Assembly (NCBI GenBank): GCA_963749155.1
Contig: CAVVLO010000002.1
Coordinates: 1,120,001 to 1,184,000 of the forward strand
DNA length: 64,000 nucleotides
Source: an uncultured Armatimonadia bacterium
Lineage (GTDB): Bacteria; Armatimonadota; Zipacnadia; CAVVLO01
Reading direction: 5' to 3'
The translations under genes were made by a program, and so were the position numbers. Position 1 is the first letter of the stretch; every line of letters starts with the position of its first letter. A model generated the notes under the pieces. That model searched no databases. It was given only the letters and a program-made list of their open reading frames with translations, and was not told the origin of the DNA. Shown here in pieces: positions 26,866-60,184 of the stretch.

Positions 26866-26888
26866 TCTGATTTGCAACACCAAAAACG

Positions 26889-26923
26889 AGCCGGGCGTCC
26901 AATTGGACGTCCGGCTTTTATTT
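26889..26923 (+). terminator. Intrinsic terminator after secF
   Basis: AGCCGGGCGTCC-AATT-GGACGTCCGGCT, then TTTATTT; upstream A-run suggests bidirectional use. Confidence 0.8.
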
Positions 26924-26952: not shown

Positions 26953-27354
26953 TCAGCAATAGGAGCTTGTTGATGAAGGTTGTTCTGTAAGAGTCTGGAT
27001 GGCTTTGAGCAGTTCGGCCAAAGAATATGGCTTAAGCATATACAGATCAGCGCCAGCGTCCCTGGCGCGCTGCATATCATCTTCGGTGCCTTTGACGGTA
27101 AGCATCATAACCTTCGTTGCGGGTAAATTGGCTTTAAGCTCCTGGCAAAGGGTGACGCCGTCCATTTCGGGCATCATAACGTCGAGAATAGCCACATCAG
27201 GATGCTCGAGCTCGGCCAGGTCATAGGCCTCTTTCCCATCTCGAGCAAGCAACACATCATATCCCGCCCTGGTAAGATTGAGCTTCATAAGCCAGCGAAC
27301 TTTGTCATCATCGTCCGCGACCAGCACTCTGGGACAGCCCGGCTCGTTGCTCAT
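26953..27354 (-). CDS. Single-domain response regulator (CheY-like)
   Basis: VLVADDD, ILDVMMPEMDG, MLT, KPY. Confidence 0.93.
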   Translation of the reverse strand: MSNEPGCPRVLVADDDDKVRWLMKLNLTRAGYDVLLARDGKEAYDLAELEHPDVAILDVMMPEMDGVTLCQELKANLPATKVMMLTVKGTEDDMQRARDAGADLYMLKPYSLAELLKAIQTLTEQPSSTSSYC

Positions 27355-27468: not shown

Positions 27469-28506
27469 CTAATCGACTGCTTTTAGAACCAATTCGGCAA
27501 GTTCTCGTGCCGGCAGTTCTGGGCCGACATAATCGGCCAGTGCCAGTTCGATACGGGCGGTCACTTCGACGATGTCGGCGCGCAAGCCTTTGAGTGAGGC
27601 TTCAAGTCGATTCACTTGTTCCTCTGTAAGGAGGAAATCACCGGTGAAAACCACCTGATCTAGGATACCGCCGGACTTGCTTGCGTAAACACGAACTAAT
27701 CCACCTGGTAGCTTCGACTCGGACTGTCCCAAAGCCTTCTTCGGATGGCGCTGTTCGAAAACCCATTCCTGCGTGCCATATCGTGAATCAACCAAACCCT
27801 GGATAGCTTCACGTTCCCAGTCGCCGAAGCTAGTCTCTATCGGCGCCAAATCAAGGCCCTGGGCAAGCGCCGGGACTATCAGATCAGCCACTTCATCAAC
27901 AGTCAGCGCTTCTCCAACAACCTCGCGCAGGGTCGTGACGCGCTGAGAGGCGGATTCGAGCTGGCGACCTTCCAACTTGGCAAGAGGGATGTTGAGCACC
28001 TGGAGCATCAAATCCAGATCCAGGTCTACCAGAACGCTTGCATGAAAAAGGAAAACTCCCTCGTCATGGCTAGAGGAAGCAAGTCCCGCGATTTTCCTGC
28101 CCTCGACTTCCAGGTCATTTTTGGGACGAAAATGAGCTTCGATGCCAGCCTCGCGCAGGCCCGTCGCCAGTGCTTCCGCAAAACGCACGAAAAGCTGCCA
28201 GGCGGCGGCGGGAGAAGGCTCACACGGGACGGCAAGGGCGATACCAAGTTGGTCAGGGGTCATCAGGATAGCGCCCCCGCCGGTGGCGCGCCGATTCACA
28301 GCAACGCCAAGGCGCTCACAGACTTCCAGGTTGGCTTCTGCATAAGCATCCTGGAAATACCCCAGGATGACAGAAGGCTGAAAACTGTAAAGGTGGAGGC
28401 TCGGTGGGATGCGCCCCTCACTGAGCGCCCGGCTAAGATGCTCGTCAACTGCCAGCCCCCAAGGAGCGGGGGTCTCCCGCTCCCGGAGGACCCTTAGGAC
28501 ACCCAT
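27469..28506 (-). CDS. lplA: Lipoate-protein ligase A family (catalytic plus C-terminal domain)
   Basis: LAVDE, RRATGGGA, PKNDLEVEGRKIAG, C-terminal FTGDF. Confidence 0.88.
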   Translation of the reverse strand: MGVLRVLRERETPAPWGLAVDEHLSRALSEGRIPPSLHLYSFQPSVILGYFQDAYAEANLEVCERLGVAVNRRATGGGAILMTPDQLGIALAVPCEPSPAAAWQLFVRFAEALATGLREAGIEAHFRPKNDLEVEGRKIAGLASSSHDEGVFLFHASVLVDLDLDLMLQVLNIPLAKLEGRQLESASQRVTTLREVVGEALTVDEVADLIVPALAQGLDLAPIETSFGDWEREAIQGLVDSRYGTQEWVFEQRHPKKALGQSESKLPGGLVRVYASKSGGILDQVVFTGDFLLTEEQVNRLEASLKGLRADIVEVTARIELALADYVGPELPARELAELVLKAVD

Positions 28507-29613
28507 CTAGACCAGCCTTTGGAGGATTAGTGGTAGATCCTGGACAGTAATCTCGGACTCAATCGATTTGGCGCCATCGCGGAGGGTGACCATGCACTGG
28601 CCGCAGGAGGTAACGATGAGTTCAGCCCCTGCATCATCGGCTTCCTTGATGCGGTCCGCAGCGATTTTTTGAGCCAGATCGGGATTGCTCGCAGCAAGTG
28701 GGCCACCACAGCAAGCGGCGTCTTCCCGGTTGCGAGGGAACTCTATCAGGTTGATGCCGGGGATAGCCTTCAGTATCTCCCGCGGGGCGTCATATATACC
28801 CATATGCCGCCCGAGATCGCAGCCGTCGTGATAGGCGACGACCTTGTCCAGCGACTTGCTGAAGGTCAGTGTGCCATCGGCGACAAGCTGAGCGAGCAGC
28901 TCGGTTACATGCACGAACTCAAACTCGTCGGTAGGATAATGATGGCGGAAAGCACCCACACAGCCAGGGCAAGTCGAGAAGACTCGCTTGACTCCCAGCT
29001 CTCGCCACTTGGCGATATTAGCCTCACGTAGCGCTTCGAAACCTTTACGGTCGCCAGCACGCCACAAGGGGTCTCCACAGCAGGTCTCTTCACTACCGGC
29101 CGCAGTGTAGTCAAAGCCAATCTTGTCAAGAATGCGGAAGAGCGACTTGGCAATCTTGTTGGAGCTATAGGACACATTGCAACCTGCGAAATAGAGGTTC
29201 TCGCTGGGCTTGCCCACCATATCGGCATCCAGCCAGGAGCCTCGCTCGTCGCGCGGCTGGCCGAAAGGATTGCCTTCTTCGTTGATACCCTTGCGAACTG
29301 CTTGCAGGCCTTCAGGCAACTCGGCGCCACTCTCGACCAGCTCTGCCCGAGCATTAGCAAGCACATCGGCGGTTTCGACTAGTGCTGGACAATGAGAGGT
29401 GCAGGCTCCACAGAAGGTGCAAGCAAAGATAGCATCGACGGCTTCCTGGGGCTCTATCTCGCCTTCTTGCAGAGCTTTGGCAAGCCGGATCTTTCCGCGC
29501 GCCACCTGGGACTCGCGACCAATCTGCTTGTATACGGGGCAGACAGCCTGACATTTGCTGCATTTCATACAGCGTACGATTTGTTCTTCAGATATGACCT
29601 TGTCCGTCATCAT
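28507..29613 (-). CDS. Fe-S protein with 2x[4Fe-4S] and two CCG domains (GlcF/HdrD-like)
   Basis: CMKCSKCQAVCP, CTFCGACTSHCP, ETCCG, TCPGC, YHDGC, ACCGG, SCGQC. Confidence 0.9.
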   Translation of the reverse strand: MMTDKVISEEQIVRCMKCSKCQAVCPVYKQIGRESQVARGKIRLAKALQEGEIEPQEAVDAIFACTFCGACTSHCPALVETADVLANARAELVESGAELPEGLQAVRKGINEEGNPFGQPRDERGSWLDADMVGKPSENLYFAGCNVSYSSNKIAKSLFRILDKIGFDYTAAGSEETCCGDPLWRAGDRKGFEALREANIAKWRELGVKRVFSTCPGCVGAFRHHYPTDEFEFVHVTELLAQLVADGTLTFSKSLDKVVAYHDGCDLGRHMGIYDAPREILKAIPGINLIEFPRNREDAACCGGPLAASNPDLAQKIAADRIKEADDAGAELIVTSCGQCMVTLRDGAKSIESEITVQDLPLILQRLV

Positions 29614-29636
29614 TCCACCTCAGCGGGCCGGTACAA

Positions 29637-31011
29637 CTAATCTATAAGTTTGCCCGGATTCATAATGCCCTTGGGATCAAGAGCCTGCCGGACACGCTTG
29701 AACGTAGCCAGAGTCGCGGGCGAGAACTCCATAGGCAGGTATTTCTTTTTCATAACGCCGATGCCGTGTTCACCACTGATGGTGCCCTCGAGTTTCATTG
29801 CGGCTTCGAACAACTCATCAATGGCAGCCTCGACTCGGGAGAACTCTTCCTTGTCCCGGACATCAGTAAGGAAGGTTGGGTGCAAGTTGCCATCGCCTGC
29901 GTGGCCAAAAGTACCAACCTGGACGTTATACTTTTTCGCGATCTCATCTACGGCGCGCAGCATGGCAGGGATGCGGCTGCGCCGTACAGTGGCATCCTCG
30001 AGCACGACCGTCGGACGCAGATTCGCGAGAGCGGAAAGAGCAGTGCGTCGACCGGACCAGAGCGCATCACGTTCGGCAGCGGTCTCGGCCTTACGGACCT
30101 CGCGGGCACCCGAGTTTTTGCAGACACCAATGATCTCGGCGGCTTCCTGGATAGCGGCTTCCTTCACCCCATCGGCTTCGATAAGCAAGACGGCGCCAGC
30201 ATCGGTAGGGAGGCCACAGGACTTAAAGTTCTCAATCGCATTTATTGTGGCGTTATCGAGGAGCTCCAGCGTGCAGGGGATGATGCCAGCCTTGATAATG
30301 GCAGCAACAGCCATCCCGGCAGCTTCGGCTGTCTCGAAGACGGCGAGCATGGACTCGGTATGCTTGGGCAGCGGGCAGTAGGTTGAGGCTGGCTTCTGTG
30401 ATGATGCCCAGAGTACCCTCAGAACCAACCATCAGTTGCTGCAGGTTGTAACCGGAGACACTCTTAACAGCCTTGGAGCCACAGCGAATTATCTCGCCTG
30501 TAGGCACGACAACCTCAAGTTCGAGTACATAGTCGTGCGTAACGCCATACTTCAGGCCGCGCAAGCCACCAGCATCCTCGGCGATGTTACCGGCGATGGT
30601 AGAGGTCGCATTGCTTGAAGGGTCAGGCGGATACATCAGACCGAAGGGCTTGACCGCATTGTCAACATCGATAGTGATCGCGCCTGACTCGCAGACCAGA
30701 TAGAGATCGTCAGTGTTGACCTCTTTGATGCGGTTCAAGTCGGTGATGACCATCACCAGGCCACCCTCGGTGGGCACACTGCCGCCCGAAAGGCCACTGC
30801 CGGCGCCACGAGGCGTCACTGGGATGAGTTCCCGGTTGGCGAACTGCATCACCTGACTGATTTCCTCGACTGAATGCGGATAAAGGACCGCTTCAGGCAA
30901 GTGCTCAACTATAGTCGCATCGTACCCATAACAGAGCAGGTCAGCTTTACCCGTGAGGACATTATCGGGCCCAACTATCGACCTGAGCTCTGCAATCTGC
31001 TGCTCAGTCAT
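29637..31011 (-). CDS. FAD-linked 2-hydroxyacid oxidoreductase (GlcD / D-lactate dehydrogenase family), frameshifted near 30375
   Basis: PRGAGSGLSGG, YPPDPSS, KYGVT, GSEGTLG, then GHAGDGNLH and ISGEHGIG in the next frame; CTGCCCGCTG to CTGCCGCTG restores the frame. Confidence 0.9.
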
Positions 31012-31037
31012 CCAGGTTCACTCCAGATTGGGGGCGG

Positions 31038-31478
31038 TTAGCCCTGCTTTTCTTTCTCGGCCTTGGCGATCTCGGCCTCAATCCATTCTGTAACAGCGTC
31101 CTCGCCGTGGAAGAGCTCTTCAAGTTCGGCTTCAAGGTCGCTGGGATCAATCTTCATAATCCAGCCTTCCCCATAAGGGTCGCTGTTGATAAGTGTCGCG
31201 TCGTCCTCGAGTTCTTCGTTGACCTCGACAACTTCGCCACTGATGGGCGAGAAAAGTTTCCCAATCCACTTGCTGGATTGAAGTTTGCCGCAGACTTCAT
31301 TCTGAGCAACTTCGTCGCCATCGAAAGGCAGGTCGATATAGACGATATCGCCGCCCTCTTTGGCGTAGAACTCGCTCATACCAACGAGCACTTTGCCATC
31401 ATCCAATACCTTGGCCCAGCTATGCTCCTCGTGGAAAAACATCTCATCGGGCATCTCATAACCTTTAATCTTGGCCAA
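31038..31478 (-). CDS. GcvH-like lipoyl-carrier protein
   Basis: HSWAK..VGMS..GDIVYIDLP..QSSKW..SPISGEVVEVN..INSDPYGEGW. Confidence 0.92.
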   Translation of the reverse strand: MAKIKGYEMPDEMFFHEEHSWAKVLDDGKVLVGMSEFYAKEGGDIVYIDLPFDGDEVAQNEVCGKLQSSKWIGKLFSPISGEVVEVNEELEDDATLINSDPYGEGWIMKIDPSDLEAELEELFHGEDAVTEWIEAEIAKAEKEKQG

Positions 31479-31491
31479 CCTGGTTTCCCCC

Positions 31492-32454
31492 TTACTTAAG
31501 GATGAAGTCTTCTGGATCCTGAGCGGAATGTTCCGACAGAACAGGTTTTTGGTCGCTGGCGGAACCAGACCGGTAATTGAACGCGGTCAGGCTAGTTTCC
31601 TCCAACCGTTTATTGAAAAGACGCAAGTCAATACCAACAGGACAAGCCCGCGAGCAGGCGCCACAGTCTACACACCGGCCCGCAAGGTGAAGGGCGCGCA
31701 GTATATGATAGACGTGGTTGTCAGATGGCTCACTCGCATTGCGCACATAGACAGGGCTCTTGCAGCCTGCGAAGCACTCATCACAGTAACACAGTGGGCA
31801 AGCATTACGACAGGCATAGCAACGCAGGCAACGTTCGGCGATTGACTCGAAGAGCTGCCAGCGATCTTGAGCAGGGAGAGCCTCTACAGCGGCGATTTGC
31901 GAAAATTCTTCGGCAACCGGCTCGTAGGCGGGGCCTTCGAGCACGTGATCAGCTTCAGGGGAAGTGCGCAGATTGCACTCGCGGCAGTTGTTCTGCCAGA
32001 CGTCGGCAAGGGGAAGCTCTTTTATAACTCCGCCGACAGTGACCTTGAGAGCCTGGCCTTCGACCTCCAGCGCCTCAATAGCCTCAGGAGCAATTTCGAG
32101 CAGGCGCGCGACTTTGGCTGGATCTACCATCCCAGGACAGGGATAGGTGATTAGCGTGATCTGGTCGCGGGCAAACTGACGCTCGGCGATGCACTCTATT
32201 AACGCGCGTCCCTCGCAGCCGCGGACGATGAAGGCGACTGCCTGGTCGCGTTTGGCCCAGTGAAGATAACCAGCCAGGTTCTCCATTGGGGCTGGAGAAA
32301 ACTGAAGCTGGTCTGCCTCTTCAGGAGTGCGCGCAAAAGTAGCGCGCGCCATCGTTGGTAGCGTGCCGGTACCAGGGCCTATAACCAGCGCGACTTTACC
32401 GGAGGCAAGCAGCTCTCGAGCAAGCTCGCGCATCTGAGTGGTCAGAGAGTCCAA
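31492..32454 (-). CDS. FdhB/FlxC-like 4Fe-4S protein
   Basis: RGCEGRA, CPG, CREC, CLRCYACRNACPLCYC, HLAGRCVDCGACSRACP; start TTG 32454 or ATG 32433. Confidence 0.8.
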   Translation of the reverse strand: MDSLTTQMRELARELLASGKVALVIGPGTGTLPTMARATFARTPEEADQLQFSPAPMENLAGYLHWAKRDQAVAFIVRGCEGRALIECIAERQFARDQITLITYPCPGMVDPAKVARLLEIAPEAIEALEVEGQALKVTVGGVIKELPLADVWQNNCRECNLRTSPEADHVLEGPAYEPVAEEFSQIAAVEALPAQDRWQLFESIAERCLRCYACRNACPLCYCDECFAGCKSPVYVRNASEPSDNHVYHILRALHLAGRCVDCGACSRACPVGIDLRLFNKRLEETSLTAFNYRSGSASDQKPVLSEHSAQDPEDFILK

Positions 32455-32897
32455 CTTGCTTTCACCAGCTTCTTGGCAGGGCCAACGCTTCGGACGCGTT
32501 CGGTCACCTTGGCGATGGTCTCTGCGAACTTGCCACCCTCTGCCGCGGAAATCCAGGTAAAGTTGAGGCGTTCTGGCTCGACGCCCATATAGGTCAAGAG
32601 GTCGTAGAGATACTTGAATCGGCGCCTGGCGCGGAAGTTGCCCTCCCCATAATGGCAATCACCAATATGACAGCCTGAAACCAGGATGCCGTCGGCGCCT
32701 TCCTCAAGCGCCTTGACGATGAAGGCCGGATCGACCCTGCCTGAGCAAGGCACGCGGATGACGCGCACATTGGGCGGATATTGCAGGCGACTGACACCAG
32801 CCAGGTCTGCGCCTGCGTAGGAACACCAGGTACACAGGAAGGCAACAATGCGGGGCTGCCAGCCCTCCTGCTCGGGTTGTGGATTAACGGATGCCAA
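32442..32897 (-). CDS. mvhD: MvhD/FlxD-type [2Fe-2S] protein
   Basis: FLCTWCSYAGAD, RVPCSGRV, GCHIGDCHY, WISAAEG. Confidence 0.95.
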   Translation of the reverse strand: MASVNPQPEQEGWQPRIVAFLCTWCSYAGADLAGVSRLQYPPNVRVIRVPCSGRVDPAFIVKALEEGADGILVSGCHIGDCHYGEGNFRARRRFKYLYDLLTYMGVEPERLNFTWISAAEGGKFAETIAKVTERVRSVGPAKKLVKASWTL

Positions 32898-35800
32898 CTA
32901 GAGCTCGCACCTCCGAGAAAACGGCTTCATCGGTGAAGCCCTGGAGAGTTATGGCTTCGCTCCGGCAGGTGGCAGCACAAACGCCGCAGCCTTTACAGAG
33001 CGCCTCGTTGACGACCGAGGTGCCGTCTTTCTCGTCCATATCGATAGCCTGGTAGGGACAGGCCTCCGCACAAGCGCCACACCCGCTGCAGCGCTTTTTA
33101 TCAGTCTTGGCGATGGTGCCTTCGGCCTCGATGTAGTCCTTGGCCAGGACGGTCGCGGCGCGCGCGGCGGCGGCTTCGGCCTGAGTAATAGCTTCGCTTA
33201 TCAGCTTGGGCGAATGAGCCAGACCAGCCAGGAAGACGCCATCGGTTGCAAAATCGACCGGGCGCAATTTGACATGAGCTTCCAGGAAGAAGCCATCGTC
33301 GTTCACTGGCACTTTGAAGAACTTGGCCAGCTCTTCATTTTCCGGGTCGGCCACGGTGGCCGCACTGAGCACAACCAGGTCGGGCTTCAAGGTCATCGCG
33401 CGACCGAGCATCGTGCTTTCAACCTCGACCTTGAGGGCGCCGTTCTCTTCCAGCACCCGAGCATCGCCATCTTCATCGAAGCGGATGAAGCGGATGCCCT
33501 GCTGGCGAGCTTCTTCGTAGACCAACTCATTAAGGCCATAGGTGCGCAGGTCGCGATAAAGCACTGTGATGTTCTTCTCAGGCCACTGTTTCTTCACGGC
33601 CAGGGCGTTCTTCACGGCCTCAGCGCAGCAGATACGGCTGCAATAAGGCCGCTCATCGCAGCGAGAGCCGACACACTGGATCATCACGATATCCTTAGCG
33701 TCAGTGACCAGCGCGGAATCAGCCCGCATTGCTTCTTCCAGATCGAGCTGGGTCAGGACGTCGGACCGCTTGCCGTAGAGCCAGCGGTCGCTGTCAGGCT
33801 TGTACTGGTGGGCGCCAGTAGCGATAACGATGGTCCCAGTCTCCAGGTCGCGCGGGGCGCCGTTATGTTCGACCGTCAGGTGGTAGTTGCCAACATATCC
33901 TCGGACGGTGGTCAGCCTGGCAGCAGTAAGGACTTCCACCAGCGGATTGGCCGCGAGTTTCTGGATGAGATCCCCGATTAACGCGGGCACGTCGGTACCA
34001 TCCACCGTGTGGCTGATGTCCCTGGCCAGACCGCCAAGTGCAGGGGCTTGCTCAAGGAGCGCGACCGGATAGCCTTCCTCGGCCAGGCAGATTGCCGCAG
34101 TCATCCCCGCTATGCCCCCGCCAATTACTACAGCGCTCTTGGTGAGCGGGATCTGGGGCATCTCCAGAGGGCGCTGATATCTCGACTTGGCGATAGCGGC
34201 CGAGATAAGATATTTTGCCTTGTCGGTGGCCGTCAGCTTGTCGTGCATATGCACCCAGGAACACTGGTCTCGGATGTTGGCCATATTGAAGAGGTAGGGA
34301 TTCAGACCCGCCTCGCGGATGGTCTCGCGGAAGAGCGGTTCATGTGTGCGCGGAGTGCAGGAAGCAACGACTACCCGGTTTAGGCCATGCTCGAGTACTG
34401 TCTCGACGATGTGTTTTTGTGTGTCCTGCGAACAGGTGTATAGGTTGCGTTCAGCGACCTCGACAAAAGGAAGTTCCTTGGCATACTCGACCAGCTCGGG
34501 CACGTCTACATAAGCACCGATGTTGGTGCCGCAATGGCAGACGAAGACCCCGATGCGGGGCCTGTCACCGGCTACATCAAGCTCTTCAGGGAAGACCTGT
34601 TTTTTCGTCTGCGTGCCGCGCGAGTCTCTCAAGAGGCCCATTGCAACCGAAGCGGCGGCGCTACCCTGAGTTACGGTCTCTGGGATATCTTTTGGACCTG
34701 CGAAGGCGCCTGCCACCAGGATGCCTTCCCGAGTGGTTTCGACCGGGTTGGTGGGACTGGTTATGGCGAACCCGTATTTGTCCAGCTCGATATTGAGCGT
34801 CTGGGCCAGTTCGTCGCTGCCCTTCGGCCTGGCCAGGCCAGTAGAGAGAACGACCAGATCGAAATCGGCGACCTGGGGATGGCCCTCGGAATCCTCATAA
34901 TGAAGCAGCAGATTGCCAGTCTCCTCGTCTTCCTGGACGGAGGAGGGACGGTAAGGGATGAACTGGACGCCAGTCTCTTCCTTGGCGCGGACATAATACT
35001 TTTCGAAGTCCTTGCCGTAAGCGCGCATATCCATATAGAAGATGGACGGCTCGACCCTGGCTTCATGCTCTTTGGCTATGACGGCTTCCTTGATGGCATA
35101 CATACAGCAGACCGCGGAGCAATATTCGTTGCCGCAGCGGGCATCGCGAGAGCCGACGCACTGGATCCAGGCGACCTTGCGCGGTACTTTACCATCAGAA
35201 GGCCGAAGTACATGACCCTTGTAGGGGCCGGAGGCGCTGAGCATACGCTCGAACTCGAGGCCAGTGACTACATTGGCGAAGCGACCGTAACCATATTCGG
35301 GTTTCAGAGCTGGATCGAAAGGCTCGAAGCCCGGACAGGCAATGACAGCGCCAACTTCCAGTTCACGCTGGGCAGGTTGCTCGTCATACCGGATAGCTTT
35401 CGGCGGGCAGATGTTTTCACAGAGTCCGCAGCCAAGGCAGGCGTCCCGGTTGATAGAATAGGCAAGCGGAACGGCTTGGGGATACTCTATGGCAGTAGCC
35501 TTGCGATGCTTTAGGCCCTGGTTGAAGGCGTCGATGGCAAGGGCGGGGCAATGCTCGGCGCACTGACCACAGCCAGTACAGGCCTCCATATCAATATAAC
35601 GGGGCCGCATCAGGATGGAAGCTTTGAAGTTGCCGGGCTCGCCTTCAAGCTGGGTAAGGCCAGAATTGGTGATGACCTCGATATTGAGATGCCTTCCAAC
35701 CTGAACCAGTTTGGGCGACAAGATGCACATCGAGCAGTCATTGGTCGGAAAGGTCTTGTCGAGGGCCGCCATTACGCCGCCGATAGAGGTGGACTGCTCG

Positions 35801-35910
35801 ACGAGGTAGACATAATAGCCCGCCTCGGCGCAATCGACGGCGGCCTGGAGGCCAGCAACGCCGCCGCCCAGGACAAGCACCGCACCTGTTGTCTGTGGAA
35901 TATCGCTCAT
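32884..35910 (-). CDS. hdrA: Double-length heterodisulfide reductase subunit A (two FAD modules)
   Basis: GGGVAG..LDKTFPTNDCSMCI..QCVGSRD..CCMYAIK; CHCGTNI..SCTPRTHE; second GGGIAG..QCVGSR; C-terminal 2x[4Fe-4S]. Confidence 0.95.
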   Translation of the reverse strand: MSDIPQTTGAVLVLGGGVAGLQAAVDCAEAGYYVYLVEQSTSIGGVMAALDKTFPTNDCSMCILSPKLVQVGRHLNIEVITNSGLTQLEGEPGNFKASILMRPRYIDMEACTGCGQCAEHCPALAIDAFNQGLKHRKATAIEYPQAVPLAYSINRDACLGCGLCENICPPKAIRYDEQPAQRELEVGAVIACPGFEPFDPALKPEYGYGRFANVVTGLEFERMLSASGPYKGHVLRPSDGKVPRKVAWIQCVGSRDARCGNEYCSAVCCMYAIKEAVIAKEHEARVEPSIFYMDMRAYGKDFEKYYVRAKEETGVQFIPYRPSSVQEDEETGNLLLHYEDSEGHPQVADFDLVVLSTGLARPKGSDELAQTLNIELDKYGFAITSPTNPVETTREGILVAGAFAGPKDIPETVTQGSAAASVAMGLLRDSRGTQTKKQVFPEELDVAGDRPRIGVFVCHCGTNIGAYVDVPELVEYAKELPFVEVAERNLYTCSQDTQKHIVETVLEHGLNRVVVASCTPRTHEPLFRETIREAGLNPYLFNMANIRDQCSWVHMHDKLTATDKAKYLISAAIAKSRYQRPLEMPQIPLTKSAVVIGGGIAGMTAAICLAEEGYPVALLEQAPALGGLARDISHTVDGTDVPALIGDLIQKLAANPLVEVLTAARLTTVRGYVGNYHLTVEHNGAPRDLETGTIVIATGAHQYKPDSDRWLYGKRSDVLTQLDLEEAMRADSALVTDAKDIVMIQCVGSRCDERPYCSRICCAEAVKNALAVKKQWPEKNITVLYRDLRTYGLNELVYEEARQQGIRFIRFDEDGDARVLEENGALKVEVESTMLGRAMTLKPDLVVLSAATVADPENEELAKFFKVPVNDDGFFLEAHVKLRPVDFATDGVFLAGLAHSPKLISEAITQAEAAAARAATVLAKDYIEAEGTIAKTDKKRCSGCGACAEACPYQAIDMDEKDGTSVVNEALCKGCGVCAATCRSEAITLQGFTDEAVFSEVRALVGIR

Positions 35911-35921
35911 AACTCTGAGTC

Positions 35922-36689
35922 CTACCTTGACGCGAAGACCGCGTAATCGTCTTTTTCGCCCGACTGAGTCACAAGGCCCTCTTCAATTAGCTCGGTGATG
36001 AGCTGGAGAGTAGCTCTGGACTTGAGGCCAATAAGGGCAGCAAGTTCGGGCACAGTGCCTTCGCCACGCTCCAGGGCGCGCAGGAGCGACTGCCGACTGA
36101 GCTGTTCATCTACCAGGTCATGCAACTTGGCCTCAAGCTGGTCGCGGGTGGCTCCCTCACCAAAGACATTACCTTCCTGCTCGAGGGCATACATCCGACC
36201 GAGCATCCAGCGGATTGGCTCGCTCTGGATGACGCGCAGGCCGAGGTCAATACGCTCGAGGAACTCCTCGCGAGTGCAGCCTTCTGCATCACCTAAAGGC
36301 CCTGCCTCACTTAACTGGTTGGTAAACTCGGTCACCAGGCTGGCGAAACGGGCGCCTTCAGCAGCGGAAACCCAGTCCCAGTCGAAGCGAGCCCGGGCAA
36401 TACCGAGCCGGTCGAGGATGAAGCGCACAAGCGCCATCCGGCGATCGGTATAATAGTTGCCGGTAGCGTAGTGGCAATCTCCAAGATGACACCCTAAGAC
36501 CAGCACGCCATCGGAACCCGCAATCAGGGCATCGAACACGAAGTCGGGCTCGACACGAGCCGAGCACATCGTGCGGATGACGCGCAGGTTGGGCGGGTAA
36601 GGGAATCTGGAGACACCCGCCAGGTCGGCGCCCGCATACGAGCACCAGTTACACAGAAATCCGGTTATCCTCGGGACGAAATCGTTCAT
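35922..36689 (-). CDS. mvhD: MvhD-like protein with C-terminal winged-HTH-like extension
   Basis: FLCNWCSYAGAD..MCSARV..GCHLGDCHY; tail TVPELAALIGL..LITELIEEGLV. Confidence 0.88.
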   Translation of the reverse strand: MNDFVPRITGFLCNWCSYAGADLAGVSRFPYPPNLRVIRTMCSARVEPDFVFDALIAGSDGVLVLGCHLGDCHYATGNYYTDRRMALVRFILDRLGIARARFDWDWVSAAEGARFASLVTEFTNQLSEAGPLGDAEGCTREEFLERIDLGLRVIQSEPIRWMLGRMYALEQEGNVFGEGATRDQLEAKLHDLVDEQLSRQSLLRALERGEGTVPELAALIGLKSRATLQLITELIEEGLVTQSGEKDDYAVFASR

Positions 36690-38371
36690 GTGAGAGCCTT
36701 TATTTCTGCCAGGATTTGATCATCGGTATAATGTCTCATCGTAATGGCGTGGGCAGGACAGCCTGCGCCACAGGCTCCGCATCCTTTACAGGAAGCAGAG
36801 ACCACCTTGGCGACTCGCCGGCTGCCCAAATCAACCAGAGAGATAGCCCCATAGGGGCAGGTTTCCTCGCAAAGGCCGCAGCCAATACACTTGTCTTCAT
36901 CTACGCTGGAAGTGATCGGCTCCACCGGGACTTCGCCGCGCTGCAAGGGGATAGAGGCGCGCGAGGCGGCCGCAAGCCCTGTCGAGATGGCCTCTGGGAT
37001 GTCACAAGGCCAGCGCGAAGCGCCCGCCAGGAAGATTCCATCGGTTGCAAAATCGACTGGGCGCAGCTTAACATGGGCTTCGAGGAAGAAGCCATGAGCA
37101 TCGCGTGGCACTTTGAGAAGCTGGGAAAGAGCCTCCGAGTCCTCATGGGCGACAAGCGGCGTGCTAAGCACTACCAACTCGGCAGGGATGCGCTCATACA
37201 TTTTCGAGAACTCATCCCAGACCAGAATCGTGCCATCTTCAATCTTGGGCGGGCGTTCGACACGATATTTTACGAAGCGGACGCCCAAGTCACGGGCGCG
37301 AGCGTACCACTGCTCGTAGTCGACCCCCCAGGCCTGCATATCGCGGTGGAGGATCCAGACGCGGGTGCCATACTTCTCAACGAGTTCCATCGCGTTTTTA
37401 AGTGCGGTAACGCAGCAGATTTTGCTGCAATAAGGCCGCTCGGGGATCCGGGCGCCAACGCACTGGATCATTACGGCGGTTTTGGGCGGCTTGAGATTGT
37501 CTTCATTGAATCTCTGCTCAAGATCCCACTGGGTCATTACATGCTCGCCGTCATAGTTGTAGAAGCCTTCTGGCTTGAGAGGCTCGGCTCCTGTTGCGAT
37601 GACAAGGATACTCGTATCGAGCTCCATCGTCTCAGTACCGTTGGTGGTCAGTTCGGCTTTGTAGTTGCCGATAAAGCCCTTGAGCCCTGTCAGCTCGGTG
37701 TTGGTCTTCACCGTGATGCGCGGATTATGCTCGATACGCGGAAGCTGGGCATCGAGCAGGCAGCCTGGCATCTCGCCGCTCGGATAAAGCTTGTGGGCGT
37801 GCTTGACCATCCCGCCCAGGGCGTCGGTTTTCTCGATTAACACGACCTTAAACTTGCGAGCGGCAAAGCTCTCAGCCGCAGCCATGCCCGCCACACCGCC
37901 GCCGATGACCAGGGCAGTATCTCCAACCGGGACACTGGTCTGTTCCAGCGGTTCGAGCAGTAAAGCGCGGGCGATGCCCATCGTGACAAGGTCTTTGGCC
38001 TTGTCAGTTGCGGCATCAGGCGCATCTCGATGAACCCAGGAGCACTGCTCGCGGATGTTCACAAACTGGAAGAGGAAGGGATTGAGTCCAGCCTCGGCAC
38101 AGGTGCGCCGGAAGAGCGGTTCGTGAGTGCGCGGAGTGCACGCAGCCACAACCACGCGAGTCAGGCCGTTTTCGGTGATAGCCTGCTTGATGGCGGTAAG
38201 GCCGACATCGGAACAAGTATATTTATTTTCGATAGCGGTGATGACGTAGGGGAGTCCCTCGACATACTCGCGGACGGCGGGGATATCAACAACCCCACCG
38301 ATGTTGGTGCCGCAGTGGCAGAGGAAAACTCCTACCCTCGGCTTTACGAATTCGTTGTCAGTTTCGCTCAT
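36686..38371 (-). CDS. hdrA: HdrA-type subunit (N-terminal CHCG domain, FAD module, C-terminal ferredoxin)
   Basis: CHCGTNI, ACTPRTHE, GGGVAG, QCVGAR..CSKICC, EAHVKLRP, CIGCGLC..CKGCGAC. Confidence 0.92.
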   Translation of the reverse strand: MSETDNEFVKPRVGVFLCHCGTNIGGVVDIPAVREYVEGLPYVITAIENKYTCSDVGLTAIKQAITENGLTRVVVAACTPRTHEPLFRRTCAEAGLNPFLFQFVNIREQCSWVHRDAPDAATDKAKDLVTMGIARALLLEPLEQTSVPVGDTALVIGGGVAGMAAAESFAARKFKVVLIEKTDALGGMVKHAHKLYPSGEMPGCLLDAQLPRIEHNPRITVKTNTELTGLKGFIGNYKAELTTNGTETMELDTSILVIATGAEPLKPEGFYNYDGEHVMTQWDLEQRFNEDNLKPPKTAVMIQCVGARIPERPYCSKICCVTALKNAMELVEKYGTRVWILHRDMQAWGVDYEQWYARARDLGVRFVKYRVERPPKIEDGTILVWDEFSKMYERIPAELVVLSTPLVAHEDSEALSQLLKVPRDAHGFFLEAHVKLRPVDFATDGIFLAGASRWPCDIPEAISTGLAAASRASIPLQRGEVPVEPITSSVDEDKCIGCGLCEETCPYGAISLVDLGSRRVAKVVSASCKGCGACGAGCPAHAITMRHYTDDQILAEIKALT

Positions 38372-39651
38372 TCTGCCACCGTCTCCGCGGCGTGCGCCGC
38401 AGCGGAGCTTGCGCAAGCAACTGCTTCAGGGATATCCATCGCGCCCCGGCAGAAACCGCAGGCGAATATCCCCTCGCGCGAGGTGCGCGTGTAATCATAA
38501 GCATTAGTCTGAAGGAAGCCGGAAGGCGAAAGCTCAAGCTCAAGTGCCGCGGCGACTTCCTGGGTGCCGCGACTCGGGATGAGCGCGACCGCCAGAACTA
38601 CCATATCAAAGGCCATCTCGTGGCGTTCGCCAGTCTGGATGTCTTCGTAGTGGACGATTGGGCTGCCATCGTCGCCTTCCTGGATGTTCGACACACGCCC
38701 CTGCATATAGTTGACGTTGTATTCGCCTTTGGCGCGGGCGATATATTCCTGGAAGCCTTTGCCTGTGGCGCGCAGGTCGGCGTAGAAGACAGTGCTTTCG
38801 ACTTCTTTGTCATGCTCATAAGCCAGCATGGCTTCTTTCGTGCTGTGCATACAGCAGACGGTAGAGCAATAAGCGACGGTGCGAGTATTACGCGAACCAG
38901 CACACTGGATAAAAGCCAGGCGCTTGACCGGCTCGTGGTTGTCAAGCCGAACCAGATGGCCGTCCGTTGGTCCAGAGGCGCAAAGCAACCGCTCGAAATC
39001 CAGCCCAGTGACGACATTCTTTACGCGGCCGTAGCCCAGGTTGGGCAGCAGCTTGGCGTCGAACTCTTCAAGGCCAGTGGCAACGACGATTGAGGCGACT
39101 TCAAGGTCGATATATTCTTCCTTGTCCTCGTAGTTGATAGCCCCTGCAGTGCAGATTCTCTGACAAAGACCGCACTTGCCGGCTGTCAGCTTGAGGCAAT
39201 GCTCGGGGTCAATAGCAACCGCAGCAGGCACGCCTTGAAGAAAATAGGAGTAGATAGCCTTCCGCTCGCGCAGCTCGCGATCAAACTCGTCAGGCACTTT
39301 TACTGGACATTTTTCTACGCAGGCGCCGCAGTTGGTGCAAGCATCAATATCGACATAACGCGGGTGCTTGAGCAGCTTTATAGTGAAGCTGCCGGCCTCG
39401 CCTTCGAGGGCAATGGCTTCAGTCTGGGTCATCACCGTAACATTGGAGTGACCGATGACGTCAGCCAGCTTGGGCGAGAGAATGCATATAGAGCAGTCAT
39501 TGGTTGGGAAGGTCTTGTCGAGCTGAGCCATACGGCCCCCGAGGGAGGGCTTGCGCTCAATAAGCACGACCTTGTAGCCAGCCTCGGCCAGGTCAAGGGC
39601 AGCCTGGACGCCTGCAACACCGCCGCCTATAACGAGGGAGTCGGCTTTCAT
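38368..39651 (-). CDS. hdrA: HdrA-type subunit (FAD module with inserted ferredoxin only)
   Basis: GGGVAG, LDKTFPTNDCSICI, CTNCGAC, CGLCQRIC, QCAGSR..CCMHSTK. Confidence 0.92.
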   Translation of the reverse strand: MKADSLVIGGGVAGVQAALDLAEAGYKVVLIERKPSLGGRMAQLDKTFPTNDCSICILSPKLADVIGHSNVTVMTQTEAIALEGEAGSFTIKLLKHPRYVDIDACTNCGACVEKCPVKVPDEFDRELRERKAIYSYFLQGVPAAVAIDPEHCLKLTAGKCGLCQRICTAGAINYEDKEEYIDLEVASIVVATGLEEFDAKLLPNLGYGRVKNVVTGLDFERLLCASGPTDGHLVRLDNHEPVKRLAFIQCAGSRNTRTVAYCSTVCCMHSTKEAMLAYEHDKEVESTVFYADLRATGKGFQEYIARAKGEYNVNYMQGRVSNIQEGDDGSPIVHYEDIQTGERHEMAFDMVVLAVALIPSRGTQEVAAALELELSPSGFLQTNAYDYTRTSREGIFACGFCRGAMDIPEAVACASSAAAHAAETVAE

Positions 39652-39652
39652 T

Positions 39653-40555
39653 CTAGTCAGCCTTCTCCTGGTCTTTACCCAGTCCAAGCTTCTCAAGCAG
39701 GCCGGTGGTCTTGATGCGATTCATATTTAGTCCGAGATCGTCCTTGGGATCCATCCCGAAGGCCAGGCCCATAAGCTGGGGCAGATAGACGACGGGCAGG
39801 TCGTATTCTTTCTCTCTGACCTCGGCAATCTTGCGCTGGTTGTCGTCATACATAACACTGCAAAAGGGGCAGAAGAGCACCATCGCATCGGCGTGGCGCT
39901 CGGTGACCTCATCGAGCTTCTTGCCAGCCATTGAAAGGGCGAGGTTTTCATCTATAGGCAGCAAGGCGCCTCCGCAACAGTTGTACTTTGAAAGGTAGTT
40001 AAGAGACTTGCCGCCGAGGGCTTCGATAATCAGGTCGAGAGTATGAGCATCCTCTGGACTGTCAAACTTGTCATGTGCCTTGCTGGGCTTAAGGTAATGG
40101 CAGCCGTAGTGAGGCGCAAAAAGCAAGTCGCCAAGAGGATGGACGACCTTCTCACGGATGGCCTCAAGGCCAATATCCTCTATAAAGACGCGCGCGATAT
40201 GGCGTATCTTGACAGTGCCTTCATAGGTGCGGTCGATTTGAGCCAGATATTCGAGAGCCTGATCTCGACTGCGTTCATCGTGATGGAAACGATGATTCGC
40301 CTCAGCGAGGACTGCGGTACAGGCGCTGCAAAGAGACATTATCTCGAGGCCCTGCTCTTCGGCATAACTAAGCTGCAGGACGGCCATCGCATTGGCGGTA
40401 GGCACGTCGGTCGAGATGACAGGGAACCCGCAACAGGAGAAGTCAGGCACATTCACGAGTTCGATGCCAAAAGCTTCGCAGACTTTACGGGCGGAAAGCT
40501 CGTAGTTCTGACCTCTGACGGGGATAGTACAGCCGAGGAAGGCGGCGAACTTCAT
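39653..40555 (-). CDS. hdrB: Heterodisulfide reductase subunit B
   Basis: FLGC, SCCG, CSAC, HYGCH, CCGG, CPFC (two CCG domains). Confidence 0.95.
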   Translation of the reverse strand: MKFAAFLGCTIPVRGQNYELSARKVCEAFGIELVNVPDFSCCGFPVISTDVPTANAMAVLQLSYAEEQGLEIMSLCSACTAVLAEANHRFHHDERSRDQALEYLAQIDRTYEGTVKIRHIARVFIEDIGLEAIREKVVHPLGDLLFAPHYGCHYLKPSKAHDKFDSPEDAHTLDLIIEALGGKSLNYLSKYNCCGGALLPIDENLALSMAGKKLDEVTERHADAMVLFCPFCSVMYDDNQRKIAEVREKEYDLPVVYLPQLMGLAFGMDPKDDLGLNMNRIKTTGLLEKLGLGKDQEKAD

Positions 40556-41091
40556 TTTTTCTCACCCTCTTCTGCGGTAGCTTCGAACTCTTTTTTGAAC
40601 TTATAGTTGGCGAAGAGCTGGCGGACTGTTTCGGCGCGCTGTTCGATTTCGGGAAGGCCCATCCGCTTGCTGCGGCGTTTGTTGTCGAAGTCGGTGATCT
40701 CATAGATGCGGCCATACTGATACACCAGTTCGGCTTGCTTCTTGAAGCCGGCGGGCACATAGCCTCGTTCGACAGCCAGGTTCTTAAGCGCGGTAATGAC
40801 GTCGGTGAGGCGGACGTCCTGAGGACAGCGCTCCTCACAGGTGTAGCACATCGAGCACAGCCAGAGGGTCTCACTCTTCAGCAAGTCCTCATCAAGGCCC
40901 AGCAAGGCCTTATGGATGATCTGGCGCGGGTTGTAATCGGGATTTATTTCAGCCACCGGACAACCGGCGGTGCAGGTGCCACACTGGAAGCAAGCATTGA
41001 TATGCTCGCCTCCTGGTTGGCGCCTGACTTCATCAGCGAAATCAGGATGCAGAGTAGTGACTTCGCGGGTTTCGTCCTCGTTAGTACTCAT
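40552..41091 (-). CDS. hdrC: Heterodisulfide reductase subunit C
   Basis: CFQCGTCTAGCP, WLCSMCYTCEERCPQ. Confidence 0.95.
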   Translation of the reverse strand: MSTNEDETREVTTLHPDFADEVRRQPGGEHINACFQCGTCTAGCPVAEINPDYNPRQIIHKALLGLDEDLLKSETLWLCSMCYTCEERCPQDVRLTDVITALKNLAVERGYVPAGFKKQAELVYQYGRIYEITDFDNKRRSKRMGLPEIEQRAETVRQLFANYKFKKEFEATAEEGEKK

Positions 41092-41129
41092 ATCGGACCT
41101 CTCCCTGGTGGTAAAGAGCACAGCAGGAG

Positions 41130-41158
41130 ATTATATGCCAGCCCCTGTGCAGTGTCAA
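41130..41158 (-). promoter_or_regulatory. Perfect-consensus sigma70 promoter of the hdr operon
   Basis: Minus strand TTGACA, 17 bp, TATAAT, about 40 bp upstream of hdrC. Confidence 0.85.
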
Positions 41159-41261
41159 ACCAAACGGAGGAAGCTCTGGTTCCCTGAAAAAAGCCTCAAA
41201 AAGGCCCCTAAAGTCTTTTTTGCCTTCTGCCGATAAGCAAGACAAGAGGGCAGAAGACGCG

Positions 41262-45448: not shown

Positions 45449-46297
45449 ATGGACAAGACTCTTCAGGATGCGATGGCCGAGCACGCCACATATGGCACCA
45501 GCGTGATGTTGTTGGTGCTTATAACCGTGTTGCTTGGTTTCGTGTTCACGGCGCGGCGCGGAAGAGAGTTATATGTAAGGCGCATCCCTGGGGTGGACGC
45601 CATACGCGAGGCCGTTGGGAGAGCCACCGAGATGGGCAAGCCCGTGTTTTTCTCGATTGGACTTGGTGGCATCGACATCGTTACCTTGCAGGCGCTTTCT
45701 ATCGCAGGTTATGTAGCCCGGCTTGCAGCCAAATATGGGACGAAAGTGATAGTGCCGGTAGTGTCGGCACCAGTATACCCAGTTGCAGAGCAAGTACTGA
45801 AAGAAGCGTATCTGGCCGAGGGCAAGCCTGAAGCTTTCAGTGAAGATCAGGTGCGTTTCCTGTCGGGAGAGCAGTTCGCCTACGCGGCAGCGTACGCAGG
45901 GATGATGCATCGAGAAAAGGCCGCGGCAAACCTGATGTTTGGTTTGTTCTATGCGGAGTCTTTGATTCTGGCGGAAAACGGTCAGAGCCTCGGGGCTATC
46001 CAGGTAGCAGGCACAGTCAGCACGACCCAGATACCTTTCTTCATTGCCACCTGCGATTACACTATCATTGGTGAGGAATACTACGCGACTTCGGCTTATC
46101 TTACGCGTGATCCGACCTTGCTAGGCTCGCTTGTAGGGCAAGACTATTCGAAGCTCCTGACTTTGTTGCTTGTGGTCGGAGGGGTAGCCTTGGCGACGCT
46201 TGCGGCCTTGTGGCCAGAGCTGGCAGGGCTTGATATGAAGCAGTTAAGCGAACTATACAAGGGGTTGTTCGAGTTCATCCCTCCCAATGGAAGCTAG
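45449..46297 (+). CDS. DUF6754-like membrane protein
   Basis: TM, then RRIPGVDAIREAVGRATEMGKP..AESLILAE..QIPFFIATCDYTIIGEEYYA; family name from recall. Confidence 0.75.
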   Translation: MDKTLQDAMAEHATYGTSVMLLVLITVLLGFVFTARRGRELYVRRIPGVDAIREAVGRATEMGKPVFFSIGLGGIDIVTLQALSIAGYVARLAAKYGTKVIVPVVSAPVYPVAEQVLKEAYLAEGKPEAFSEDQVRFLSGEQFAYAAAYAGMMHREKAAANLMFGLFYAESLILAENGQSLGAIQVAGTVSTTQIPFFIATCDYTIIGEEYYATSAYLTRDPTLLGSLVGQDYSKLLTLLLVVGGVALATLAALWPELAGLDMKQLSELYKGLFEFIPPNGS

Positions 46298-47114: not shown

Positions 47115-47122
47115 GGGGCAGC

Positions 47123-60166: not shown

Positions 60167-60184
60167 ATTCTGTACATCTGCAGC

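Follow-up and report, generated by a model that had tools for sequence, protein, structure and literature searches.

The 64,000-nt stretch of DNA analysed here (the window, to which all positions refer unless a contig or locus is named) comes from an uncultured sediment bacterium of the Armatimonadia, whose genome is 4.17 Mb in size and has a completeness score of 100%. On its minus strand, from 41091 to 27469, the window carries an array of twelve genes coding for HdrC, HdrB, HdrA, MvhD and FlxC-like proteins, a GcvH-like lipoyl carrier, a GlcD-type dehydrogenase with an HdrD-like partner, and a lipoate-protein ligase. These are the twelve genes named in an earlier sequence-only reading of the same DNA, and the list of open reading frames (ORFs), together with Pfam and NCBIfam scans, recovered all of them on this strand and at the coordinates claimed.

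Organisation of the operon

The array is preceded by a perfect sigma-70 promoter (TTGACA-17-TATAAT, 41130..41158, minus strand), located about 39 nt 5' of the start codon of hdrC, and the ribosome-binding site GGAGAGG precedes this ATG at 41091. The single perfect promoter proposed by the sequence-only reading is the sole perfect match in the 64-kb window and was found in none of 100 shuffles. The claim of that reading that adjacent genes overlap or are separated by at most 26 nt also holds when the likeliest start codons are taken, with overlaps of the ATGA type or distances of 0-26 nt. Within the operon, promoter-like sites (4, compared with 5.9 +/- 2.4 in shuffles) were not enriched, and terminator-like sites (19, compared with 13.5 +/- 3.6) were counted as no more frequent than in shuffles; with frequencies at the shuffle level, such internal sites were dropped as signals.

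Genes for HdrABC, MvhD and a FlxC-like protein

The first two genes encode proteins with the motifs typical of their names. HdrC (40552..41091, 179 aa) matches Fer4_8 and related families and contains two four-cysteine ferredoxin motifs, comprising residues 34, 37, 40 and 44 and residues 79, 82, 85 and 89. HdrB (39653..40555, 300 aa) shows two stretches matching the Pfam family CCG, which correspond to two complete CCG motifs, C9-x31-CC-x33-CxxC and C152-x40-CC-x34-CxxC. The scores against the respective models, 126.8 bits for HdrC (TIGR03290, cut-off 160) and 246 bits for HdrB (TIGR03288, cut-off 345), are under the thresholds.

HdrA is encoded in two forms. The fused form (32884..35910, 1008 aa) matches the HdrA2 model NF040770 in three stretches with a total of 1021.6 bits, under the cut-off of 1100. 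The split form consists of hdrA' (38368..39696, likely ATG 39651) and hdrA'' (36686..38416, likely ATG 38371), the start codon of the latter overlapping the stop codon of the former (ATGA). The 442-aa ORF of hdrA' comprises an FAD/thioredoxin-reductase-like domain with an inserted ferredoxin domain, covers positions 134-559 of NF040770 and aligns with residues 12-411 of the fused protein at 47% identity, and the 576-aa ORF of hdrA'' comprises an N-terminal domain, an FAD domain free of the insert and a C-terminal ferredoxin domain, covers positions 1-231 and 380-650 of the model and aligns at 44% identity with residues 450-1004 of that fused protein. Both genes are thus present as predicted, but rather than independent HdrA proteins they encode the halves of a single unit, which the 1008-aa gene holds in fused form. 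Because hdrA' and hdrA'' match the halves of this gene at 44-47% identity, the operon holds two 'HdrA + MvhD' units of the pseudo-dimeric type, of which the first is split and the second fused.

Each of these units is accompanied by an MvhD (FlpD) gene. The shorter MvhD (32442..32897, 151 aa) matches FlpD with an E-value of 3.3e-55, and in the longer one (35922..36689, 255 aa) residues 8-130 match FlpD at 1.6e-48 and are followed by a 125-aa C-terminal tail. The sequence-only reading took this tail for a helix-turn-helix (HTH) domain; the MvhD domain is well supported, but the tail gives weak winged-HTH matches, to HTH_IclR and MarR_2, at E-values of about 1e-3 and below the Pfam cut-offs. Homologues of the 255-aa protein with 39-54% identity occur at loci L027, L029, L033, L034 and L062 of the neighbourhood survey described below. 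The next gene encodes a FlxC/FrhB-like Fe-S protein (31492..32433, 313 aa from ATG 32433, with the longest ORF extending to 32658), which contains 4Fe-4S motifs and scores 21.7-22.4 bits against FrhB_FdhB_C (cut-off 23.3).

Taken together, HdrB of the operon has two CCG motifs, HdrC two 4Fe-4S motifs, and HdrA the FAD and Fe-S domains expected, with all scores under the cut-offs of the methanogen equivalog models. The operon contains no gene for FlxA or FlxB. FlxA/FlxB homologues are located elsewhere on the contig that carries the window (C2), at C2:1240250-1242137 and C2:813063-814980. The former belong to a second, classic hdrC-hdrB-hdrA-mvhD-flxC-flxB-flxA locus (C2:1240250-1247009, L113), the proteins of which are 28-52% identical to those of the operon, with 37% identity between the two FlxC-like proteins. 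The latter form a further FlxAB-like pair beside a [NiFe]-hydrogenase-like gene at C2:809723.

The GlcD-type dehydrogenase and its HdrD-like partner

The gene glcD (29637..31011) encodes a predicted FAD-linked 2-hydroxyacid dehydrogenase with FAD_binding_4 and FAD-oxidase_C domains. It is present where the sequence-only reading placed it, but its reading frame is broken in this assembly: the two domains are encoded by overlapping ORFs in different frames (30253-31011 and 29637-30428, respectively), with a frameshift near 30376. Contigs X1 and X2, which come from two studies and represent strains about 97% identical, are shorter by one base at 30376, which restores a single glcD frame; contig X1 differs from the window by 62 substitutions and one gap over 2201 nt. 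Two other contigs, X5 and X8, end at 30375, short of bridging the site, and are uninformative on it. A GT4 glycosyltransferase gene in the same window is likewise split, into a Glyco_trans_4_4 ORF (48670-49026) and a Glycos_transf_1 ORF (49010-49816). Since this makes a second likely frameshift, the two single-base events suggest indel errors of the assembly, with a strain-specific glcD mutation as a possible alternative.

The HdrD/GlcF-like protein encoded downstream (28507..29613, 368 aa) contains two 4Fe-4S motifs and two complete CCG motifs, and 18 cysteines are invariant in an alignment of 27 such sequences. The pair therefore has the GlcD/HdrD-like architecture, in which an FAD-linked oxidase is followed by a protein with 2x[4Fe-4S] and 2xCCG. 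The top named NCBIfam matches are glycolate oxidase GlcD and, among others, GlcF, all under their cut-offs, and the Pfam scan found no second FAD_binding_4 gene that could represent GlcE in the operon. GlcD is predicted to be a D-2-hydroxyacid dehydrogenase and is most likely a D-lactate dehydrogenase; it is the LarA and LUD-domain neighbours of the module that point to lactate as the substrate.

The lipoyl carrier and its ligase

Between the FlxC-like and glcD genes lies the gene for the carrier (31038..31478, 146 aa, TTG start), which matches Pfam GCV_H with an E-value of 7.2e-36. It has a putative lipoyl lysine, K70, in the sequence QSSKWIGK, a single cysteine (C63) and a computed pI of 4.14. 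The residues Q67, S68, K70, W71, G73 and K74 are invariant in all 28 aligned members of its clade. More than 1100 relatives were found at E <= 1e-10; members of the clade in other phyla are 54-67% identical to the carrier, versus 34% for the H protein of the genome's own canonical gcvT-gcvH-gcvPA-gcvPB cluster, which is situated 16-20 kb past the window end.

In a tree of 202 sequences, built on few columns and otherwise poorly resolved, the canonical GcvH of this genome and two further known canonical GcvH proteins belong to a clade of 51 sequences (SH-aLRT 98); all 95 sequences with the KW hairpin, the carrier included, fall outside this clade. The sequence-only reading had named a grouping with true GcvH, or gcvPT genes elsewhere in the genome that lacked an H protein of their own, as results that would speak against a separate carrier; neither was found. 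Two of the five complete genomes that encode the carrier (G002 and G005) have no GCV_T domain at all. In 40 relatives of the same class no close homologue of the carrier was detected, canonical-type GcvH being the only form present with a best identity of 46%, and for this reason the module appears patchy and is probably mobile over evolutionary time. The model NF045810 ('GcvH_rel_desulf') does not describe the carrier (40 bits, cut-off 150), and all of its matches in the Protein Data Bank are labelled GcvH, at about 87 bits or less.

The affiliation of the carrier with LbpA, the lipoate-binding protein of sulfur oxidisers, was also considered. LbpA proteins are described in the accessible part of a recent preprint as having a cysteine pair close to the N-terminus and the C-terminus, surface patches that are basic and a pI higher than about 4.5 (bioRxiv 10.64898/2026.10.01.755906). 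Judged by these published features alone, the carrier, with its one cysteine at position 63 and acidic pI, is not an LbpA.

The last gene of the operon, lplA (27469..28506), encodes a lipoate-protein ligase with a catalytic domain (PF21948, 5.1e-40) and a C-terminal accessory domain (PF10437, 1.9e-07), scoring 162.9 bits against TIGR00545 (cut-off 280). It is 30-43% identical to ligases encoded beside GcvH-like genes elsewhere and 23-31% identical to those beside canonical GcvH in the class relatives, and by this comparison it represents a carrier-associated ligase lineage. At two other loci the catalytic domain of LplA is fused to DUF116 (525-530 aa) beside the carrier, in an archaeon (L027:5366-6943) and in a member of Thermodesulfobacteriota (L088:8268-9860).

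Other lipoate-related genes of the genome include LipA, a second LplA, an Lpd-like gene (C2:29889-31238, 378 bits with a cut-off of 408.8) and a LipS1/S2-like pair (C2:1102184-1104143) 45 kb from the operon. This pair lies within locus L112 (C2:1095310-1104146), about 16-25 kb before the window start, where a LarA-family gene adjoins genes for aconitase-like large and small subunits; further along, the LipS2/LipS1-like radical-SAM pair is followed by a PqqD-like gene. Neither an E2 lipoyl component nor DsrC was found in the whole genome, and with no DsrC the partner proposed for sulfate reducers is unavailable here. The sequence-only reading had listed gcvP/gcvT, dihydrolipoamide dehydrogenase (Lpd), 2-oxoacid dehydrogenase, dsrC, the hydrogenase MvhAG and FlxA as missing from the window. 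Its list was accurate, and on the scale of the genome it can now be completed: the gcv genes lie beyond the window, FlxAB, Lpd-like and [NiFe]-hydrogenase-like genes are elsewhere on the contig, and E2 and DsrC were not found genome-wide.

Distribution of the module across phyla

Genes within 10 kb were recorded at the 80 best genomic loci related to the carrier; these loci were chosen by similarity, and the counts are lower bounds, as many of the contigs are short. The carriers encoded there are 54-67% identical to the one described here and represent at least seven phyla including Archaea. The sources comprise Thermodesulfobacteriota, 'Deltaproteobacteria' labelled as Myxococcota, WOR-3 ('Caldifarciminota'), Stahlbacteria, Sumerlaeota, Planctomycetota, Bacillota, Thermoplasmatota and archaea labelled as Methanobacteriota.

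The most frequent neighbours are LplA (45 of the 80 loci) and a LipS2-like protein (41), followed by a CCG protein of the HdrB or HdrD-like type (32), GlcD/HdrD-like proteins (27), LarA (25) and Hdr subunits (18). FlxA and FlxB occur at 13 and 12 loci, respectively, OsmC and a LipS1-like protein at ten each, and a LipT-like protein at seven. Both Hdr and GlcD/HdrD-like genes are present at seven loci, none of the twelve operon partner genes at six, and gcvT/P at none. The control set of 20 GcvH loci from relatives of the same class gave a different picture: gcvT/PA/PB genes accompany GcvH in five cases and an LplA-like gene, of the 23-31% identity group mentioned above, in 15, and no Hdr, GlcD, HdrD-like, MvhD or FrhB-like gene was seen at any of them.

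Thus, the conservation of synteny on which the sequence-only reading depended was found, the module recurring across phyla and in both domains. Essentially the same operon, with FlxB and FlxA in addition, is present in Sumerlaeota at L079, and a second sumerlaeotal locus, L059, is also near-identical. In the Methanomassiliicoccales (L027) the same parts are rearranged into two divergent units, which also include OsmC, the LplA-DUF116 fusion, a LipT-like gene and, preceding the carrier, a pair of radical-SAM genes. Genome G005 provides an independent locus (L088) with the order LUD-CCG, GlcD, HdrD-like, GcvH-like (ESGKWLGK), HdrD-like and LplA-DUF116.

The existence of a separate H protein in the genome's own gcv cluster, the position of the carrier outside the canonical clade and the lack of gcvT/P at all 80 loci identify the carrier, at the level of sequence comparison, as a dedicated paralogue and not as a glycine-cleavage H protein.

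Fusion proteins and a model of the complex

An exhaustive search of 1.84 billion representative sequences returned 9337 matches to the carrier at E <= 1e-3. The top match is a 1391-aa protein from an Anaerolineae metagenome-assembled genome (MAG), which combines three GcvH-like domains with GlcD, Fer4 and two CCG domains. A word-indexed search revealed no longer forms of the carrier at E <= 1e-10, the fusions coming from the exhaustive representative search alone. Other fusions recovered there connect the GcvH fold with signalling domains: receiver-GcvH proteins are among P0139, P0155, P0163 and P0265, and P0268 is a GcvH-GAF-histidine kinase. In P0155 a receiver and the GcvH fold are joined to an HdrC-like ferredoxin domain, seemingly without the lipoyl lysine. 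By their domain composition, the receiver and kinase fusions may reflect a redox-sensing use of the fold.

The structure of a complex between the carrier and the HdrD-like protein was predicted from self-made alignments of 28 and 27 sequences, respectively. The model scored 0.71, versus 0.21 for the best of three controls; this mark is reached by 116 of 157 solved complexes and by two of 215 mismatched pairs, a calibration that is only rough here, own alignments having been used. Different runs agree in at least 97% of the contacts, and the pLDDT of the partner is at least 88. To the modelled interface the carrier contributes residues 46-52, residues 62-72, where the hairpin with K70 lies, and residues 91-95. 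The HdrD-like protein contributes residues 117-127, 149-156, 307, 311 and 342-358, flanking the CCG cysteines C145, C301/302 and C337/340. The structure prediction suggested by the sequence-only reading was in this case favourable: the lipoyl-lysine hairpin docks on the CCG region and the controls were passed. The model thus supports binding of the carrier to the CCG region of the HdrD-like protein. We know of no solved GcvH-CCG complex.

Proposed function of the operon

In our judgement there is about an even chance that the operon encodes a lipoyl-protein-dependent redox system in which the carrier joins the GlcD/HdrD-like enzyme to HdrABC-MvhD-FlxC. According to this proposal, LplA would lipoylate the dedicated GcvH-fold carrier at K70, and the dithiolane would serve as a protein-bound disulfide/dithiol substrate of CCG-type sites (HdrB-like, noncubane Fe-S). 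One such site would be that of the HdrD-like partner of GlcD, and the other that of HdrB in an HdrABC-MvhD-FlxC complex with two pseudo-dimeric HdrA units. In this way the carrier would link 2-hydroxyacid/2-oxoacid redox chemistry to a flavin-based bifurcating or confurcating HdrA.

Which way the electrons would flow may be considered from standard potentials, which are about -290 mV for the lipoyl group, -190 mV for lactate/pyruvate, -320 mV for NAD and -450 to -500 mV for ferredoxin. With these values NADH cannot be bifurcated onto ferredoxin and the lipoyl group, and electron transfer from lactate to the lipoyl group is uphill, so that confurcation and bifurcation from a low-potential donor are the favourable directions. 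A likely net reaction would be the reduction of a mid-potential acceptor by lactate together with reduced ferredoxin, comparable to that of lactate dehydrogenase-EtfAB. Alternatively, a low-potential donor might bifurcate to ferredoxin and the lipoyl group, with pyruvate as the final sink. Gene content, synteny and the complex model aside, the elements of this scheme are inferred: that the carrier is lipoylated, that it docks on HdrB, which substrate is used, which way the electrons pass, that bifurcation takes place and that the genes are co-transcribed.

Several points weigh against this proposal. The transfer of electrons from lactate to the lipoyl group is uphill by about 100 mV, and glcD is frameshifted in this assembly; if the frameshift is real, the local redox system is broken. 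Co-transcription of the operon is a prediction from gene spacing. The FlxA and FlxB proteins that accompany the module at some of the related loci are both missing from this operon, the nearest being about 80 kb off in the second hdr-flx locus. The carrier itself scores above the NCBIfam cut-offs for GcvH, with 131 bits compared with 117 for NF002270 and, narrowly, 119.1 compared with 115.85 for TIGR00527, and in genome G001 it is the sole good GcvH match, though a GCV_T domain is present there; its clade may act as a general H protein or as a lipoate-assembly hub in some lineages. In Thermodesulfobacteriota, 16 of the 17 loci have just LplA, plus LipS2-like genes, beside the carrier. The 80 loci are not independent of each other, many being short contigs of related MAGs. 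Lastly, since the lipoyl lysine is missing from all three GcvH-like domains of the 1391-aa fusion, this protein is taken, on its sequence, to link the GcvH fold, and not lipoate itself, to GlcD/HdrD-like proteins.

The shuttle between HdrB and the HdrD-like protein that was put forward by the sequence-only reading is therefore retained in part. It gains from the synteny, the status of the carrier as a dedicated paralogue, the GlcD/HdrD fusion, the frequency of LarA and the docking model with the HdrD-like protein, but it is weakened by the uphill reaction from lactate, by the lack of LbpA-like features in the carrier and by the many Thermodesulfobacteriota loci with lipoate-assembly genes only. 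A more general form of the proposal appears rather less probable than its local form and is offered tentatively. It holds that carriers of this kind, marked by a Q/E-S-x-K-W-I/L-G-K hairpin and distinct from both GcvH and LbpA, constitute a third class of lipoyl carriers and are the physiological substrate of CCG sites (HdrB, HdrD-like) in many non-methanogenic anaerobes of Bacteria and Archaea, where the swinging arm would couple the oxidation of D-lactate (2-hydroxyacid) to HdrA-based confurcation or bifurcation.

Among other explanations, the carrier could serve the GlcD/HdrD-like enzyme alone, as part of a lactate:lipoyl-protein oxidoreductase or its reverse, and be recycled, for example, by an Lpd-like flavoprotein and NAD, leaving HdrABC-MvhD-FlxC as a separate module with another substrate. 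Such an arrangement would account for the 20 of 27 GlcD/HdrD-like loci, mainly in WOR-3 and Stahlbacteria, in which no Hdr subunit is encoded within 10 kb of the carrier, for the fusion of GcvH-like domains to GlcD and HdrD-like domains and not to HdrABC, and for the sole complex model made, which backs docking on the HdrD-like protein; an Lpd-like gene is also available in the genome. It fits poorly with loci L008, L009, L025 and L063, where hdrB-hdrC or hdrCBA stands directly at the carrier and no GlcD/HdrD-like gene was found on the available stretch, with the seven loci containing both modules, and with the operon itself, where a single promoter precedes all genes and no two neighbours are more than 26 nt apart. 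We consider it unlikely, yet the most serious of the competitors. A role in anaerobe oxidative-stress defence, with the reduced carrier mainly feeding a thiol peroxidase of the OsmC/Ohr type and the Hdr and GlcD/HdrD-like proteins acting as its reductases, seems improbable. Lipoyl-dependent OsmC/Ohr peroxidases are established elsewhere, one use being cited in a gene legend of bioRxiv 10.64898/2026.10.01.755906, and an OsmC-like gene is found no more than 10 kb from the carrier at the ten loci counted above, mostly of Thermoplasmatota, at L027 directly before LplA-DUF116. However, the other 70 loci have no OsmC, no OsmC/Ohr gene was detected in the operon or among the window ORFs (E <= 1e-4 for the six ORFs that flank it, 1e-8 for the remaining 40), and a tblastn search with OsmC of L027 produced no match in the genome at 1e-5.

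About equally improbable is that the carrier and its ligase form a housekeeping lipoate relay or hub for the LplA/LipS1/LipS2 route, the adjacency of Hdr and GlcD genes being mechanistically meaningless. The prevalence of LipS2-like radical-SAM and LplA genes in the survey, the habit of Thermodesulfobacteriota carriers to have just lipoate-assembly neighbours, and the LipS1/S2-like pair of the genome would be expected of such a hub. On the other hand, no E2 lipoyl target was found in the genome, where LipA, another LplA and a canonical GcvH are available already; the recurrent association with CCG proteins extends over at least seven phyla, versus none of the 20 control loci; and both the fusion protein and the complex model tie the GcvH fold to GlcD/HdrD-like proteins. 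Participation in C2/glycine metabolism, in which a GlcD/GlcF glycolate oxidase would provide glyoxylate and hence glycine for cleavage with the H-like protein, is very improbable. It draws on the names of the best NCBIfam matches of the two proteins, all sub-threshold, and on the scores of the carrier above the GcvH cut-offs, and is opposed by the absence of gcvT/P from the 80 loci, by the separate H protein of the genome's gcv cluster, by the genomes G002 and G005 with a carrier and no GCV_T, by the lack of a GlcE-like gene in the operon, and by the association of the module with LarA and, at L088, with a LUD-domain enzyme of the lactate type.

Neighbouring features of the window

A gene for a receiver-only response regulator (26953..27354, minus strand, Response_reg) is located 114 nt 3' of lplA and may be a thirteenth cistron; with homologues at none of the 80 related loci, it was not accepted as a conserved part of the module. 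It is followed by a GC-rich hairpin (26888..26917; 13 pairs, nine of them G-C) with T or A runs on both sides, which, by its structure and position, likely terminates both the minus-strand unit and the convergent secDF. On the opposite side, a receiver-GGDEF diguanylate cyclase gene (41220-42617, plus strand) diverges from the operon promoter; at the Stahlbacteria locus L013 a GGDEF region 38% identical to it lies about 9 kb from the carrier.

A run of plus-strand ORFs (45449-48603), flanked by NanE-like and glycosyltransferase genes, has no Pfam match except DUF6754 at 45449-46297. Near the right end, dnaA, dnaN and recF are found together with a DciA-like gene (59069-62946, minus strand). 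The cumulative GC skew peaks and turns near 57-62 kb of the window, at this cluster, and the chromosomal replication origin is therefore probably close to the right end.

Comparison with known systems

Many anaerobes in which CoM-S-S-CoB and DsrC are both missing nevertheless have HdrABC and CCG proteins of the HdrD-like kind, and the thiol/disulfide substrate of these proteins has long been a gap in anaerobic bioenergetics, as has the acceptor of lactate dehydrogenases of the GlcD/HdrD type. The operon names a concrete and testable candidate, namely one particular lipoyl protein that has a ligase of its own, and this candidate is backed by synteny across phyla, by a fusion protein that occurs naturally and by a model of the complex that passes its controls. 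If true, the general form of the proposal would answer the question of what bacterial Hdr and HdrD-like enzymes reduce where CoM-S-S-CoB and DsrC are lacking, and the candidate would extend the role of lipoate past 2-oxoacid dehydrogenases, glycine cleavage and sHdr sulfur oxidation to fermentative or syntrophic electron bifurcation. No description of a GcvH-like/LplA/GlcD/HdrD/HdrABC module was found in the full-text literature, subscription journals and supplements being outside the search.

The FlxABCD-HdrABC system of Desulfovibrio vulgaris is reportedly NADH-linked and directed to DsrC. The operon resembles it in the gene order hdrCBA, mvhD/flxD and flxC-like, and relatives of the operon also carry FlxB and FlxA. 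It differs in having no FlxA/FlxB, in the absence of DsrC from the genome, in the doubling of HdrA into two units, and in the lipoyl carrier, ligase and GlcD/HdrD-like genes built into it.

A D-lactate dehydrogenase of the GlcD type with an HdrD-like partner occurs in sulfate reducers, and Escherichia coli has the glycolate oxidase GlcDEF. Both share with the operon the succession of a FAD_binding_4/FAD-oxidase_C protein and a protein with two 4Fe-4S and two CCG motifs; unlike GlcDEF, the operon has no GlcE, and unlike in either enzyme the pair is flanked by a lipoyl carrier and a ligase. For the known lactate and glycolate enzymes, the electron acceptor assigned to the HdrD-like subunit is, to our knowledge, either unresolved or given as quinone or DsrC, and lipoate has not been proposed. 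The lactate dehydrogenase-EtfAB of Acetobacterium woodii is said to be electron-confurcating, lactate oxidation being driven by the co-oxidation of reduced ferredoxin. Its net reaction is possibly the same as that considered here, but the proteins are unrelated (Etf versus HdrA) and no thiol/disulfide carrier is involved.

An involvement of GcvH with HdrB has been suggested in Culexarchaeia, where GcvH is encoded with HdrB and HdrA2B2C2 and was put forward as the disulfide carrier of HdrB in a non-methanogen (PMC9723716). In the parts of that paper available to us, the idea takes the form of a one-paragraph suggestion, and a clade analysis or modelling was not seen. The archaeal cluster, which comprises a membrane-bound Ehe hydrogenase, HdrA2B2C2, SdhA, CdhA and GcvH, is described there without GlcD/HdrD-like, ligase and LarA genes, which sets it apart from the present module. 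With the MetFV-Hdr enzyme of Sporomusa, free lipoate was tried and had no effect, as far as the portion consulted reports (PMC9430772).

The closest system, on what could be seen of the published accounts, is sHdr-LbpA of the sulfur oxidisers Hyphomicrobium denitrificans, Thioalkalivibrio and Aquifex (PMC6067878, PMC10332631, bioRxiv 10.64898/2026.10.01.755906). In both, a GcvH-fold lipoyl protein that does not belong to glycine cleavage is encoded with an Hdr-like complex having an HdrB of the CCG type, a lipoate ligase of its own, described as of the sLpl(AB) type for LbpA, is present, and LipS1/LipS2-like (in relatives also LipT-like) lipoate-assembly genes accompany the carrier. Unlike LbpA, the carrier described here is acidic and has no cysteine pair at the N- and C-termini. 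The operon also lacks the sHdr layout hdrC1B1A-hyp-hdrC2B2, and its Hdr, with a double HdrA, MvhD and FlxC, has instead a layout of the bifurcation type. DsrE, TusA and rhodanese genes were found neither in Pfam scans of the operon (1e-3) nor in those of the window ORFs (1e-4, 1e-8); the companions of the carrier are a GlcD/HdrD-like partner and, as a frequent neighbour, LarA.

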